A stretch of 58,579 bases of DNA, counting the filler, from Basidioascus undulatus (taxonomy: Eukaryota), in NCBI GenBank assembly GCA_000826855.1. It is 4 parts of 4 records of this genome, joined end to end, with 100 filler letters (N's around TTAATTAATTAA, not from the genome) between each part and the next. Parts side by side here need not be neighbours in the genome. Positions count along the whole stretch, not along the records: positions 14,682 to 29,255 come from JTLS01000715.1; 3 more parts are not named here. The stretch is one strand, 5' to 3'. A model generated the notes under the pieces. The model was not told where the DNA came from. It worked only from the letters and a program-made list of their open reading frames with translations, and did not search any database. The stretch's first letter is position 1. Every line of letters starts with the position of its first letter. The translations under genes and the position numbers were made by a program. Below, piece after piece: positions 1 through 43,241 of this stretch.

Positions 1-993
1 GGGGGGGAAGGTGGCAGTCACTCAGAAACGTACTGGTTGATCCAGATCTTGCGGGCTTCGCCTGGAAGGAAAGAAAAGATATGCTGGAGCTTCGCCTGCG
101 TGAGCTCGGACCGCGGCACGCCCTGAATCATCCAACTGTCAGCATACAGAGAAAAATTCGTTAGACAAGCAAGAACGCACCGTGATGAGGACAGTATTTG
201 CCTGCGCCGAGAGCGAGTGGTCCTTGTCGATGAGGAATCGCTGGCGGGCGTGGACGAAGTAGGTCATCTCGACTTTGATGTTGTATAGAATCCAGACTGG
301 GACAAAAGACGCTGCATCATCAACAACAGATCACAACCCTTTGCTTTGGACCCATATCCCAGCTGCCCAGCTTCATCTCCCAGATGCGCCCCCCCCCACC
401 CCCCGCCCATCACATGAACAGCCCGGGATCGCGCAACTCACAGGTGAAGATCCATGCGCAAAGCAAGTGTGCGGCGTAGCGAGGGTATGCAGCGTTGGTA
501 TCAACGTTGCCGTACGTGAAGATGTTGAGGCCCTTCTGGCCTGCGGTCGGCTGGACTGCGTCGACGGGCATGAGGACGACCCAGGAGAGGAACCAGATCG
601 GCGCGAGGATCTTGACGCAGAGGCGGAGGAAACGGAGGAACATGAACGAATCGAGCCCGTTCTTGCGCACTACGTGTGCTAACGGCGTTCGCAAGATCGC
701 TAGAGGCCATGTAAAGTAATCTCGAGGAAGGGGCGCCTGGCGAAGTCTGCAAAACGAACATCCCTGTGAGGCCCCAAGACGAAGCGAGCAGAAATCGGAG
801 CCTGGACAAGCGTGTATACGCACTTTGGAGGAGGGAGGAAGGTCCGGGGCTCGTAGATCTTGCGGAATTGGGGCCGCAGGATGACGAAGGCGAAGACTTG
901 AGCGCCGAAGACGGCTGCGTTGATCACGATCGCGGTCGTGAACGACTCGGTCGTCGCCGACTGCGCGCTCTCTGCTGAAGCTTTGTTGGACAT
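1..993 (-). CDS. CSC1/OSCA/TMEM63-family (RSN1-like) cation channel, 5' exons; runs off the contig end
   Basis: MSNKASAES...FTTAIVINAAVFGAQVFAFVILRPQFRKIYEPRTFLPP; later exon KNGLDSFMFLRFLRLCVKILAPIWFLSWVVLMPV...YAAHLLCAWIFT; further exon RTVLIT; GT-AG introns. Confidence 0.9.
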
Positions 994-1134: not shown

Positions 1135-2193
1135 CGAGCGGGAAGTCTCCGCACGCACGTGCTCTCGCTGAGCTTGTTGGGAGTGTTGACGGAAGCGAGG
1201 GTGATCGTCGTTCGTAAAGAAGGAGGGCACGAATTATCAGAAAAAACGAGTGTAGTTTGGTGGTATGGAGTTGAAGACGTTGTGGCTGATGGCAAGACAG
1301 GTCTGAGAGAGAAACTGGAGCGAAGTTACGCGCGGGGCGCGACGTTTCATTCATTTCTTGGTTTTCAGGGTCGACGCGGCAAGCATCGACGTCGTTATCC
1401 GCGGGAATCAACGTCGTTGTCGTTGTCAGTTGTTACAGTAGTACTGTAGCTGGTTGTTTCGGGAGCACCAAGGAGCACGCTTCAATTGAGGAGATCATGG
1501 TGGTTTAGCAAGCATCGGCAGGAAGACGTTGAACACCGCAGAGGATACTTTCGGTCGAGCCGGCCACGACACCATACGGAATTCAGACGGTCAAGATGGG
1601 TAGCTTCAAGCTATGACTAAAAGTAACAATCCACGCCACTTCAAGGACCTTCGGCCCTCGCAGACAGCTCCACCAGTTCATGAAGACTACACACCCCACT
1701 CTCCGGTTTTCAACCATCCGAAGGAGTCCTTCGACCAGCCCAACAGCGCATCCTACCTAAACTGCGACAGCACGAGCTCGGCTTGTGTTCGCGGCTGTCC
1801 GGGTTCGAGCAGTGGCAGTGCAGGCGACCCGAAAGATCAGAGGGAGCGCACAGCCGTTCCGCGATCGTGGACGGCTTCCAAGGCTTGCCAACGATGGAAG
1901 GAAGGGAAAAACAAACGAGAGCTGCTGCTACGAAAGAAAGAGAGGGTACCAGCGCTCTGAAAGCCGCGGCTTACCCGGACGACGCGGGCATTTCGATCGA
2001 TTTGCCGGACTTATAGGTAAGATCACCCGAGAAAGACGACTGGCGCGAGTAAGATCTAGCGATGGCGAGTACGAAGACTAAGTCCCTTAGTGTCCATTTG
2101 CCCATGCGACGAGCGAGAGCAAATCATGAATTGTCGGCGCAGTGTTCGAGTGCAAGAAAGCAAGCAGGCCCTGTCAAGCTAGTGTCTATCTAC

Positions 2194-22844: not shown

Positions 22845-24865
22845 TTAAGCCTGCGCAGCGACCGACTGGGCGAGGACACCGCCCTCCTTGGCAACGCAAG
22901 CCTGCAGGCGGCACATCTCGCGCCTGGAGAGTTGAAGGTGACGATTAGACTCGACTCGTCAGTGGGAAAGGTGAAGAGAGGCACGCACTGTTTGGCGGTG
23001 CCGTCGGTGTTGTCAACCTCGAGGTCCCACGAGAGGAACTCATTGGTCATGTTCGGCTTGAAGTCCGGCTGGACGATGCCGAGGCGGATGGAGTAGTTCG
23101 TGACCTTAGAGGTCATGCGTGTTGATCAGTAACAACACCCCCATGCGAAACGCAAGAGGTAGAGGAGATGAGCACACCTTCGTCCAGTCGCGCTTGACAT
23201 TGGCGAGGTCGCGCGAGAGGTAGTTGAACGAGCGGTCGAACTGGAGTGCGTTGAGCTTGGTGTTCATCGCGGGCTGCAGGGGTTGTGACAACGATCGTGA
23301 GCATTGGTGGATGCGAAGAGGATTGGTGGGAGATGGTGGAGAGGGCGCACCTTGAACGCGCAGTACTTCTCCCAGCCGGCCTTGGGGTCCTTGAAGAGCT
23401 CGTCGGCGCCACGCTTGACAGCACGCATGAACGCGCCGGTCTCCTTGGGGTGAGCCTTGATCCAGTCCTCGTTGCCTGTTCAACGCGAGGGACATCAGCA
23501 CAGCGTAGGCAAGAGTAGGAAGATAGAAGCGTGCGCACCGATGTAGAGGATAGAGCAGAAGCAGCAGCACCCAAGCTCAGCGAGCTCGTCGATGCGGAGC
23601 ATCTTGACGTCGGACGCGGGGCGGCCGTTGGCCTTGCACCACTCCTCGAGCTGTGGTTCCAGGCGTCGTTCAGTTTCTTCCGTCTCCATGCAACGGAGTC
23701 CCCAACTACCGTGCTTGTCGACAATGAAGCAATCCCAGGCAGGCATTACCCTGCGCAGGTTATGGCGGTCTGATCTCAGCACGACCCGCTCGGAGGCGGG
23801 TCGGCACCCGCTTGACGTTCATAGCGACAAGCTCCCTTTAGGAGACGCGAGCGTACCTGACTTGGCAGCCCGAGAATGGAAGAAAGAAAAAATAGCGAAA
23901 GAGACGCGGTGGTCCCGGTTGGGTAGCGGGTTCACGACCTCGCGGATCATCTCACCTCGACCTGCTGGACTGCGGGAGGGGGCAAGGAAGGGTGTGAGTA
24001 CGTCCAACCAAGGAGGGAGGCGACAGGGAAAGAAGGGTAGGGATTTTACTGTTCTCGAGACCGATGCCGGCGTCGATCGTGCCCTCGATAATGGCCTTAG
24101 AGATGTTCATGCCGCAACGGACAGCGGTGTAGTCCGCAGGGGTCATGCCTGCCCCGGCGGTCCGCCCTTTGAGTCGCCCGCACGTCACCCAAAGCTCGAC
24201 CGTCAACATACCGTAATGCTTGGTGAGTTCGTCGATTTGAACCTTGCCAAACTCGCCGACGTACCCGATCCTCTTGCCCTTGAGGGACTGGAAGTCGGAG
24301 GTGACGCCCGAGCCCTATTGACGTTTCACTCTCCGTCAACACCCACAAGTCTCGCACGACCTGGCCTGAAAAACTACGCACCTCGAGGTAGAGTACGCCG
24401 GTGAAGGGCTCGTCCATGAGCGTGCCGATGGACTTGATCGGGTAGCCGCGGGCCTTGCCAGCGATGGTGTGGACCATGGCCTTGGTGCCGAGGTCGGCCT
24501 TGCCAGCGCCCTGAGAGCAGCAGAGTACACGGTCAGCGAGCTGCGCGATTAGATAAAAGAGTGAGGCCACACGCACGATGAGCTCCGTCACGTCCGAGGG
24601 GTCGTTGGGTTCGAGGATGGCGACCTTGATGCCCTCGTCCTTGAAGTAGCCTGTCGGACCATGAGGATCAGGCCCGATGCGGGGAGACGTCCATGGTGTT
24701 GTCTGATGTACCATTGGCCTGAGCAAGGAAAAGCGGGGCGTGGTACGCCGTCGCGTGCCTATCAACAAGAATCCGGTCGGGTCAGTCAATCCAGGCTCGA
24801 GAAGGTGGTCGAAAAGAGAAGACACACCAGTTGAGGAGGACAGAGATCTTGTCAGTGGTCGCCAT
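22845..24865 (-). CDS. THI5: HMP-P synthase of thiamine biosynthesis (THI5/NMT1 family), multi-exon
   Basis: [119 protein letters not shown]. Confidence 0.97.
23726..23814 (-). ncRNA. TPP riboswitch aptamer within a 305-nt coding-region intron (23651-23955) of THI5/NMT1
   Basis: Sense strand AAGC GGGTGC CGACCCGC-CTCCGA-GCGGGTCG TGCTGAGA TCAGACCGC CATAACCTG CG CAGG GTAATG CCTG CCTGGGATT GCTT: P1 AAGC/GCTT, perfect 8-bp P3, CTGAGA junction, TAAT L5 loop; host gene is a thiamine synthesis gene. Confidence 0.92.
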
Positions 24866-27863
24866 GTTGTCTGTTCGGTCGTCGTTGCAGGTGGAGATGT
24901 GATGGATGGGAACGCGGTGGTGATGGGGGGAAGGAAAGCAGCACTTGCCAGCGCGGCGGGTGAAAAGACGCTGGGGAGACAGCTGAAGAAGTGACGCATC
25001 ACGCATTGGCCGATGCCGTCCGATAACCGATCGACCTGCCCATGGGGAAAAGCTTCTGTCGCCATATGGGTTGCTTCCGCAAACTTCTCCTTGCATGTAC
25101 ATAATCACACTGTCACAGTAGTATTGATCGATATTCAAAGCAATCTGCAAAGCCAAGTGTGCGCCAAGATAGCAGACAGGGCGGAATTGAAGGAGGTCGA
25201 CGCGAGTTGACTCGCCGTCGCACAGAAACAGCAGAGGAAATATTGATATCCTCAGGTCGACGAAAGTGAAGGAGAACAACACTGCTGAGATCTTGTGCAA
25301 GTTCGACTCCGACCGTCCAATTTGGCCTCCTCGAGCCCGCGATCAAAGCAGGCAGTTGCGGTGTAGAACAGCCAAGGCCGCGACTCACAACCATCTCTCA
25401 GTACCTACTAATGTCGACCACGCGTGTCTCCCGTCCTGCATCGCTCCAAATCGTGAACGACAACAATCCAAGTCTGTACTCAGCGATATCGAGACCACCA
25501 AGCAATCTCCTCCAAGCGGTACCGCCAGGGTGTGAACGATCAAGGAGATGTAGGCAGGTATGCTCCCTGAGTCCATCGCGGTCCACCATTACGAGTCCGT
25601 TTCGTTGAATGAAAGGAATTCCAAAGATCTAATGGACCCTTAAGAAGTCCAGAAAAAGATGCGTCGGACAGTCGGGATAATGCGGGAGGCGTGTCGAACG
25701 AGAGAGACCGGCAGACTCTCGGGGGGCATCCAACTTATCGAGGGCCGCGCTTCGGCAGAGCCACTAGCACTGCTCGACGGATGTGAGGTGCAGAGAACTA
25801 TGGAATACAGGGTAAAGTAGATCGAAGATCCTCGCGCACACGAGGAGGCCCGCGGCGCGGCCGGCTCAGCCTAGATTGCCCCTCCCCGACATCCACGATC
25901 CCTCGCTGTTCGAAATCGAAGGCGAAAGAAGCGATGTTGATAGAATCTGATTTTGAAGATATAGGAGAACACCCCATTGAAACAGGATTGCAGTTGTCAC
26001 TAACCCCGTTAGCAATCCTTTGGATTACATGGGAAGTTCATGCACGAGAGGCGCTCGAACAAGAAGACAGGCATCCAGTCCTTGCCAGTAGCTGGCTGAT
26101 GTGCTTCAACTTGGATCCGCATCCGGAAAATGAAGATTTCATAGTCAGTTTCAACACTATCTAATTCAGCTCGAGAATGGTCAGAAGACGTACCGCTATA
26201 CCACGGCGCGACAGTGATCGGTTCAAATCGTGTTTCACTGCGCTGGATGGCGTTCTTGAGCCCGTACTTCGGAGGGCAGCGAACTCCTTGATAGCGATGC
26301 TCGGCTAGTGGTGTTCAGGTCTCGAGCAAGGTCAACTATTTAATAGGTGCAACCAGCGCTGTATTTCACTCCCTTTCCTTTACCTCTCCCTCCCCCAACC
26401 GGGGATTGTACTTGGCCCAAGCTTCTGCAAACAGGCTGCTCCCCTCCCCCTGACCTCTCATTGGAAACATACTGGTCTGTCCGACCGTCGCGGGCTACTT
26501 CGTCTGGACTCTGAGCCGCACAACGTTCATACCTCCCCACCGAAACTCCGTGCGCATTCACGGCCGGCGGAGTGTGGCCGCAAACGTCACTGATCAAGCT
26601 GTGGCTGCAGCATCTGACTCCCTGCTCAGCACGTCTATGTTTTTGGTAGGAAACATGGACATGAAACAGTTGCCCGGATCCGCGTCTAAGTATATCTCCT
26701 CAACCCGCTCGTGGAGCCAGCGATTTGCAGACGCCGGCCGTTGAATTGCTGATGAGCGTTGCAGCGGTGACCGTCTTTTTGGTGGCACATTCTGTGGTGA
26801 GCCCTTCCACTCTGCTCGTTGCTCACGCTTCCCCTTTAAGCTGGTTCGGAGGAAGTTGTACAGACATAGAGCAACTGGGCGGGGACGAGGACGAGAGAGT
26901 TGCTGCTGCCACAAACGGCTGAGCGCCCTCTGGCAGTGGGAGGAAGACGGAGCTGAACCTCAGAAACTGGAACCCTCAAACCTAAACGATGAGATTAACG
27001 AGTCTAGCAGGTCGCTTCTCCGAACCAAGCAGGCAGCCTCAGGTGCACTCGGGGTCGCGTTTGACGGCGACTGCACTGGAGTAGCTGATGCAGGCCTTCC
27101 CGGCTTTCCATCAAAGGGCCTTGAGTCCTGTCGGACTACAGAAACTCCATTGCGTAACATAACCTGTTATCAGGGGCACTATCGTCGCAGTGTTTCTCTC
27201 ACTGGGCACACAGGCTTTTGGGAAAAGCGTAGAACCTCCGTGCGAAACGGGCAGCCTGAGCCTGAGCCGTCACTCAGAAAACGAGGACTTTCCCCAGTAC
27301 CCTCTTTTGCGGAAGTGACTTTTGAGAACGCATTATATAGAGCTCCTTTGGAGGAGCTGATGAGGGCGAGCTGTACTTGTTGGAGGACCCGGGTCTCGAC
27401 GGGACAGGGTAAGCAGGGACTGTGCCAGCGCAGCGCTCCTAGCCTCACAGGCTGTACCTTTCATCCCTCGTGCCCATGGATACAGCCGTTTCCTTCCCCG
27501 CACCTTCGAAATCCAAATCCAAAAAGCGTTACCGAAGATTGGAAAAGGAACCGAACAAAAGAATGCTCGAAAAAACAACACGGGGTTGGCACAGAGCTTT
27601 GCCCTGGACGTCTGAAACGCCCGCCTCGCGCTGCGAGCTGTCAAAACTAACCTGCTCGCGCAGTTGAGCCAACCCCTCGTCTTGGTCGACTTGCAAGTGC
27701 CCGCCCATCCATCGCCAGAATAGCTTGATTCTTGTCCAGCCTCCCACACACCCGACGCCCGACGCCGACGTGTGCACCGCACCGTGCTCCCCATCCACCC
27801 AGACTGCCGGCGCCTTCCTTGCCCTGCCCTGCCCACGACCCCTCTTCGCCCGCCAGCAGCAGC

Positions 27864-43168: not shown

Positions 43169-43241
43169 TGACCACTGCAGGGCTCGATCCTGCGACATTT
43201 TGCGTGTTAAGCAAACACTCTACCAACTGAGTTAAGCGGCC
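43169..43241 (-). tRNA. tRNA-Val(AAC), intronless
   Basis: GGCCGCT TA ACTC AGTTGGTA GAGT G TTTGC TT-AAC-AC GCAAA ATGTC GCAGG ATCGAGC CCTGC AGTGGTC A folds into a full cloverleaf; T7 Pol III terminator 2 nt downstream. Confidence 0.93.

Follow-up and report, generated by a model that had tools for sequence, protein, structure and literature searches.

Can an aptamer of the thiamine pyrophosphate (TPP) class lose the base that grips the pyrophosphate of its ligand and still serve as a switch? The question is raised by a 58,579-nt stretch of DNA joined from parts of four records of the Basidioascus undulatus genome (assembly GCA_000826855.1), hereafter the window, to whose positions all coordinates refer. 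On the minus strand of the part derived from record JTLS01000715.1, an intron of an NMT1/THI5-like gene for hydroxymethylpyrimidine phosphate (HMP-P) synthase contains a TPP-class aptamer whose pyrophosphate-sensor arm departs from the consensus, as an earlier note on this DNA had pointed out. To our knowledge, TPP is the only riboswitch class known in eukaryotes. Its pyrophosphate pocket has been treated as invariant and used as a search criterion, and the two fungal surveys consulted here leaned on the GCG motif of this pocket (PMC5882874, PMC11683625). An aptamer without GCG in a gene that still needs correct splicing would mean either that a riboswitch is being lost or that its selectivity has been relaxed with the switch kept. 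Tentatively, at a probability of about 45 %, we favour a working but weakened, less pyrophosphate-dependent switch of the Type III described by Mukherjee et al. (2018; PMC5882874), in which the odd bases would be tolerated through alternative pairing and through the stability of the arm.

Departures in the pyrophosphate-sensor arm

The letters on which the earlier note had built were exact: the reverse complement of positions 23731–23762 is AACCUGCGCAGGGUAAUGCCUGCCUGGGAUUG, and the minus strand from 23761 to 23734 reads ACCUG-CG-CAGG-GUAAUG-CCUG-CC-UGGGA. DNA contigs from two runs of two studies showed 0 differences from the window over 1801 nt (23100–24900), which is weak independent support, since the window itself may derive from one run or the other.

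Positions within the arm are given in the numbering of the Escherichia coli thiM aptamer, which we placed on this RNA with the help of the cited 18-nt spacing and which we take to hold here. In the cmscan alignment to the Rfam TPP model (RF00059), a single base is absent 3′ of J5/4 relative to the consensus. The 3′ strand of the arm is thus one base short and three registers are possible: cmscan deletes the base at position 80, the minimum free energy (MFE) fold sets ten bases opposite ten and loses G83, and G78 is the deleted base if the strands are anchored on GGGA. G60 and C77 remain, A61 is replaced by C and U62 by G, G78 is replaced by C or deleted, and either A80 has become G (forming a U·G wobble) or G83 is missing, the last two changes depending on the register. 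In none of the three registers does G60 face a G.

U59, A80, G60, C77 and G78 are described as highly conserved, and among G60, C77 and G78 it is G78 alone that contacts the pyrophosphate directly (PMC3764141). Because of the combined changes at positions 61, 62, 78 and 80, the G60–G78 contact is predicted to be removed and the open internal loop between J4/5 and J5/4 to be closed to a C·C mismatch. The MFE fold recovered the extension of P5 by GCAGG/CCUGC that the earlier note had suggested, giving a 5-bp P5 and leaving a 1×1 C·C loop. With an MFE of −12.7 kcal/mol, this arm is predicted to be the most stable of the 14 aptamers compared (the other 13, −5.7 to −9.9 kcal/mol). As the pyrophosphate-gripping base is lost, sensing of the vitamin is probably weaker or less selective than in related aptamers.

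Rarity of the variant among other aptamers

The comparison set was built from an 88-aa contiguous reading of the host gene (through an in-frame intron), which returned 34 metagenome loci with NMT1 relatives; a relaxed-threshold RF00059 scan of these loci yielded 13 eukaryote-type TPP aptamers besides that of the window (the row for L018:410 was taken from its cmscan alignment). C77–G78 was kept in 13/13 and A61 in 12/13, the exception being C61 in locus L002, the positional orthologue described below. P5 exceeds four pairs in none of the 13 (window, five), and a standard pair at 60–78 or 62–77 was found in one of the 14 aptamers, that of the window. In an alignment of the 3′ halves, P5 itself is paired in 14/14, with compensatory changes at two pairs (for example, CAGG/CCUG in the window and CAUG/CAUG in L002). 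The pair counts use the thiM register of P4, from which the RNAalifold register is one base off; an inserted base displaces the rows for L002, L023 and L024 by one position, and some of their P4 cells score as unpaired.

The junction called non-consensus in the earlier note differs from that of all 13 comparison aptamers and from a motif considered universal in fungi. One survey states the GCG motif and a G–G pair 18 nt apart for all fungal TPP aptamers, and the three example sequences printed in its supplement carry GCG in 3/3 (PMC5882874); the other likewise gives the motif as universal in fungal aptamers (PMC11683625). The possibility that the substitutions are common in fungal TPP aptamers was not borne out, GCG being kept throughout the comparison set. 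Among the literature matches listed, none described a natural eukaryotic specificity variant of the TPP class (the matches comprised a bacterial hydroxymethylpyrimidine pyrophosphate [HMP-PP] class and general reviews), and none was relevant to TPP riboswitches of Pucciniomycotina or Ustilaginomycotina.

TPP could still be sensed normally if the pocket were re-registered, for example through a G60–G80 pair with C78 and U79 bulged or with G62 serving as a metal contact. G60 and C77 are retained and guanines stand at 62 and 80–82; L002 tolerates C61 and an extra J5/4 base, suggesting that the pocket is somewhat plastic in this clade; and in thiM, A61G improved switching despite a lower affinity for TPP (bioRxiv 10.1101/2025.01.21.634073). 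However, the G–G spacing would be 20 nt instead of the conserved 18 nt (PMC5882874), the conserved U59–A80 pair would be lost (PMC3764141), the thermodynamic model strongly favours the closed helix and the 13 comparison aptamers offer no natural precedent. We consider a re-registered pocket improbable.

Detection and intact parts of the aptamer

RF00059 matched the minus strand at 23821–23716 with 34.4 bits against a gathering score of 54.3 (E value 4.5e-5 in a 501-nt search, 0.0053 in the whole window), the sole match to this family in the window. A default scan at the gathering threshold misses it, and with 34 bits against a cut-off of 54, such aptamers escape motif- or score-based scans. 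Scores below the gathering value were also obtained for 9/13 comparison aptamers near NMT1 homologues (28.3–43.4 bits). These lack P3a and vary in P3, and low scores for eukaryotic aptamers are a weakness of the model that is already known.

The three-way junction is present, with P1, a P2–P3 arm and a P4–P5 arm in both the cmscan alignment (model positions 1–105) and the MFE folds, and P3 forms a clean hairpin of 8 bp. The pyrimidine-sensor motifs GGGUGC (P2/J2-3) and CUGAGA (J3/2) agree with the consensus in the alignment, and CUGAGA is identical across all 14 aptamers compared. The earlier note had taken the pyrimidine-sensing side and the UAAU of L5 to be intact, and the cmscan alignment upholds this.

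Host gene and competing 5′ splice sites

The gene model (Table 1) was derived from the reading frame together with a spliced contig of run X3. PF09084 matched two exon pieces with 51.9 bits (E value 1.2e-13) and 35.9 bits (E value 9.2e-9; cut-off 20.5), and did not match two other, shorter exon pieces. Run X3 is labelled 'DNA?'; its contig is spliced at seven introns, all GT..AG on the minus strand, and the run is therefore clearly transcript-derived. Taken with the RF00059 match, the gene model places the aptamer where the earlier note had located it, in an intron of the HMP-P synthase gene.

This intron, the seventh of 11, is 305 nt long, compared with 61–80 nt for the other ten, and two 5′ splice sites serve its single 3′ splice site. 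Removal from the distal site restores an open frame in which ...IQQVE is joined to LEEWCK.... Use of the distal site is suggested by the reading frame and by L002; the corresponding junction, 23956–23650, is absent from the transcript contig. The X3 contig instead carries the isoform spliced from the proximal site, which keeps 99 nt starting GUG AGA UGA and translates as ...IQQVEVR followed by a stop. The 14-nt micro-exon that ends at the distal site is flanked upstream by an intron of 80 nt and downstream by the riboswitch intron, and is lineage-specific, since L002 has no intron upstream of it.

The arrangement corresponds to the Type III of Mukherjee et al. (2018), defined by an internal intron of 200–400 nt in which an in-frame stop separates two donors (PMC5882874). 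Here, the internal intron of 305 nt has donors at 23955 and 23856 with UGA at 23949–23947 between them, and as in that type, the 3′ splice site lies just past the aptamer and the host is NMT1. The Type III mode was proposed from sequence and stated as not yet observed experimentally; in contrast, use of the second donor is seen here in a spliced transcript contig, giving transcript-level support for a Type III mechanism in a coding intron. A second difference lies in the motif, GCG in all fungal aptamers according to that report and GCC in the window. The 23 Basidiomycota rows listed first in its table include one NMT1 aptamer (Wallemia), and the two surveys report no or hardly any NMT1-linked aptamers in Basidiomycota (PMC5882874, PMC11683625), from which we draw no contrast with the window.

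Elsewhere in the X3 contig, intron 2 (24651–24711 on the minus strand, 61 nt) is retained and breaks the frame; the contig may represent pre-mRNA or a mixed-isoform assembly.

Table 1. Features of the HMP-P synthase gene and its riboswitch intron, in window coordinates
Feature	Position	Strand	Basis
NMT1/THI5-like HMP-P synthase gene, 12 exons, 343 aa, open frame	22845..24865	−	X3 contig and reading frame, PF09084
Riboswitch intron (distal 5′ splice site used), intron 7 of 11, 305 nt	23651..23955	−	Gene model; 3′ splice site 23651 confirmed by X3
Micro-exon of 14 nt, UCCAGCAGGUCGAG, coding IQQVE with the preceding base	23956..23969	−	Joint 24050 to 23969 in X3; frame
Candidate anti-aptamer (alpha-like) element	23932..23974	−	Complementary to 23765–23728
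Distal productive 5′ splice site, GUGAGA	23950..23955	−	Gene model; block GAG/GURAGAUGA shared with L002
In-frame UGA, third codon past the distal site, retained if the proximal site is used	23947..23949	−	Isoform translation; same in L002
Proximal unproductive 5′ splice site, GUACGC, 99 nt downstream of the distal site	23851..23856	−	X3 contig joins 23857 to 23650
TPP-class aptamer (P1–P5, without P3a)	23716..23821	−	cmscan RF00059 and fold
CUGAGA, J3/2 pyrimidine-sensing T-loop, intact	23774..23779	−	cmscan alignment, aptamer comparison
P4–P5 arm, pyrophosphate-sensor helix	23734..23760	−	P4 CCUG/UGGG, C·C mismatch, 5-bp P5 GCAGG/CCUGC, loop GUAAUG
J4/5, positions 61–62, C G for consensus A U	23754..23755	−	cmscan alignment, 14-aptamer table
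L5 loop GUAAUG, UAAU tertiary-contact motif (docks on P3), intact	23744..23749	−	cmscan alignment, 14-aptamer table
J5/4, positions 77–78, C C for consensus C G; GCG motif lost	23738..23739	−	cmscan alignment, 14-aptamer table

Complementarity between the arm and the distal splice site

A stretch that takes in the micro-exon, the splice sites flanking it (the upstream 3′ site and the distal 5′ site) and 20 nt past the latter is complementary to 23765–23728, that is, to the P4–P5 arm and the start of the 3′ side of P1. The duplex reaches −36.9 kcal/mol, a value matched by 3/500 dinucleotide shuffles of the local 51 nt. C61, G62, C77, C78, U79 and G80 are all Watson–Crick paired in it, and four of the partners (23961–23964) lie in the coding micro-exon. 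When the three odd bases were reverted to consensus in silico, the duplex fell from −36.9 to −31.1 kcal/mol (5.8 weaker) and the arm from −12.7 to −8.1 kcal/mol (4.6 weaker). In a 351-nt fold, the aptamer state (−125.9 kcal/mol) is nearly isoenergetic with the unconstrained state, in which the anti-aptamer is partly paired (−127.3 kcal/mol). L002 has complementary elements of its own, equalled by 0/500 shuffles for positions 600–822 and by 18/500 for positions 600–670.

If this stretch acts as an anti-aptamer, the second pairing would offer an alternative reason for the identity of the odd bases, one that the earlier note had overlooked, and a coding micro-exon could then constrain the sequence of a ligand pocket.

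Pairing of P4–P5 with the proximal 5′ splice site was also considered as the main anti-aptamer interaction and was rejected; 10/12 pairs could be drawn by eye, but 89/500 shuffles equal it.

Conservation in an orthologous intron

A positional orthologue of the aptamer intron was found at one of the 34 loci, L002, a contig of 1529 nt whose query exon is 70 % identical at the amino-acid level. The junction is the same (...IQQVE followed by GURAGAUGA), the intron is 358 nt long and the aptamer lies approximately 210 nt inside it. Its arm reads CCUG-CU-CAUG-AUAAUG-CAUG-CGC-CAGG-GA, sharing C61 with the window and retaining GCG. Conservation of the substitutions in orthologues, which the earlier note had raised as a check, was thus not found beyond C61, and as the substitutions are not conserved, there is no sign that a variant class has been selected. 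Conservation shared by the two introns is confined to two blocks, one at the distal splice site and the other an aptamer core running from GUGCUGAGAU to UAAUGC.UGC, and it stops exactly at J5/4. The A61→C change is probably the older one, and a comparison of the two sequences with 12 outgroups suggests that U62→G, the loss of G78 and A80→G are private to the window lineage. L008, a locus of similar GC content, has no intron at the position of the aptamer intron and no aptamer match.

The first of these blocks, GAG/GURAGAUGA (the slash marking the splice site), unites the distal donor and the stop in one conserved unit, with CGCGA a few bases further on (window 23947–23958, minus strand; L002 609–622).

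The main rival to a working switch is recent decay, whereby a ligand-blind aptamer would persist whose stable P4–P5 hairpin, or fixed anti-aptamer pairing, sets a constitutive isoform ratio, with the remaining parts not yet eroded. The loss of G78 is lineage-private, L002 keeping GCG, and three to four conserved or functionally important pocket positions have been hit together; the arm hairpin, as the most stable of 14, may form without ligand. The X3 contig carries both the stop-containing form and the retained intron 2, and diatom aptamers that look intact proved to be non-regulatory (PMC9544697). Against decay, all other elements of the aptamer are intact, P5 shows a compensatory change relative to L002, the intact NMT1 frame implies that productive splicing of intron 7 is still needed, and the near-isoenergetic alternative folds resemble a poised switch. 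On balance, we regard decay as rather unlikely, while treating it as the alternative to be reckoned with.

A weakened switch and its weak points

In the weakened but working switch that we favour, the RNA would still fold and would sense thiamine compounds through the intact pyrimidine pocket and the docking of L5 on P3, but it would bind them far more weakly than canonical aptamers do, and with less dependence on the pyrophosphate. The two 5′ splice sites would compete, the distal one leading to the open frame and the proximal one to the retention of 99 nt with the in-frame UGA. The changed bases would be tolerated, and possibly favoured, through their pairing with the anti-aptamer over the micro-exon and distal 5′ splice site, and the same bases may also stabilise the arm hairpin. 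The scale of the expected loss can be gauged from E. coli thiM, in which A61U changed TPP affinity from 0.74 nM to 2200 nM and the triple change A61U+C63U+G78U gave 687 nM (bioRxiv 10.1101/2025.01.21.634073). The aptamer with its rare deviation, the two splice sites, the stop-carrying isoform in RNA and the complementarity were observed directly, whereas we infer how affinity and selectivity have changed, in which direction the switch regulates and whether the changed bases have been selected.

Several points weigh against this interpretation. The thiM figures come from a bacterial aptamer with other substitutions (A61U and G78U, not A61C and G78C), and the case for weakened sensing in the window RNA is drawn from sequence and folding. 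Function predicted in this way is unreliable, as shown by diatom aptamers that keep their motifs intact and yet have no regulatory effect (PMC9544697). A single lineage shows the change, with GCG kept in L002, and drift or recent damage would fit the data equally well. The X3 contig proves that the stop-carrying isoform exists, but not its dominance or its dependence on thiamine (contigs drop variants, and this is one contig from one run); the productive junction was not seen among the contigs, a set that cannot show absence. As for the anti-aptamer, the same duplex strength is reached by 12/500 shuffles when the whole 154-nt upstream part is used, GC-rich shuffles give strong duplexes in any case (mean −24 to −29 kcal/mol), and the duplex partly covers the distal 5′ splice site and could block it instead of promoting its use. 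Pairing with the proximal site, the published NMT1 mechanism, is not above chance (89/500).

A changed ligand range, as proposed in the earlier note, would make the aptamer respond to a pyrimidine compound without a pyrophosphate–Mg bridge (thiamine, HMP or HMP-P), so that HMP-P synthase would be under product-type feedback. In favour, the pyrophosphate pocket is gone and the pyrimidine pocket intact, the host gene makes HMP-P, and bacteria have a riboswitch class for HMP-PP, a thiamin precursor (PMC6478431). However, the variant is not conserved, NMT1 is an ordinary host of canonical TPP aptamers and does not point to HMP derivatives, and a ligand that does not bridge both arms would have little leverage on P4–P5, the element that competes with the anti-aptamer. 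A changed ligand range is thus possible but unsupported, and we hold it to be very doubtful.

In the boldest reading, pyrophosphate recognition would have been given up altogether: a natural eukaryotic aptamer with a preformed P4–P5 hairpin would sense thiamine, thiamine monophosphate and possibly HMP or HMP-P, and no longer TPP specifically, its pocket bases re-used for the pairing that selects the splice site. We think this unlikely by a wide measure; if true, it would be the first natural eukaryotic specificity variant of the TPP class and would show the constraints of an expression platform reshaping a ligand pocket.

Comparison with known riboswitches

The location of the aptamer, its host gene and its splicing logic are already known from other systems. 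What is new here is that a naturally occurring eukaryotic aptamer lacks the GCG/G78 pocket, that a transcript attests the second donor of a Type III switch and that a putative anti-aptamer overlaps a coding micro-exon.

The Neurospora crassa NMT1 and THI4 switches (via Li and Breaker 2013, PMC3597705) belong to the same gene family, use competing 5′ splice sites and are OFF switches, and their P4–P5 supplies the strand that pairs elsewhere in the absence of TPP, as we propose for the window. They differ in that their intron belongs to the 5′ leader, with upstream open reading frames in the unproductive form, whereas the window intron lies in the coding region. Furthermore, P4–P5 masks the proximal site in N. 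crassa, while the complementarity in the window is to the distal region (3/500) and not to the proximal one (89/500).

A further parallel for the candidate anti-aptamer is the alpha–alpha′ pairing of N. crassa NCU01977, in which an element beside the distal 5′ splice site is likewise complementary to part of the aptamer, and in both cases pairing without ligand would favour the distal, productive site (PMC3597705). In NCU01977, the 3′ side of P1 serves as alpha′ and the partners are approximately 530 nt apart; in the window, the partner is mainly P4–P5 with the start of 3′ P1, at a distance of approximately 170–200 nt, and, unlike in NCU01977, the element extends over a coding micro-exon and even over the splice site.

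For the pocket, the nearest counterparts are the engineered E. coli thiM mutants M2 and M3, which also carry changes at positions 61 and 78 and which keep the fold and the binding on the pyrimidine side (bioRxiv 10.1101/2025.01.21.634073). These are bacterial laboratory mutants (A61U/G78U) with TPP affinity reduced 900- to 3000-fold, whereas the window RNA is natural and known from its sequence.

Other RNA elements in the window and comparison loci

The only Rfam match in the window above its gathering score is a tRNA gene at 43169–43241 on the minus strand (60.1 bits). In a protein atlas, the only match to a 472-aa open reading frame was a bacterial peptidase cluster (0.76), which is of no help in placing the taxon. 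Among the comparison loci, L018 has TPP aptamers at 410–520 (minus strand) and 1896–2002 (plus strand) upstream of one NMT1 homologue, an opposed arrangement that suggests divergently transcribed thiamine genes with one switch each. L017 carries a canonical TPP aptamer (1596–1712, 59.5 bits) approximately 900 nt downstream of its NMT1 match, which probably belongs to a neighbouring gene. Finally, L030 (1687–2056) and L033 (568–982) are GC-rich, evidently bacterial contigs with a weak NMT1-like match, beside which each has two matches to the Xanthine (NMT1 RNA, RF03054) riboswitch on opposite strands (44–56 bits).

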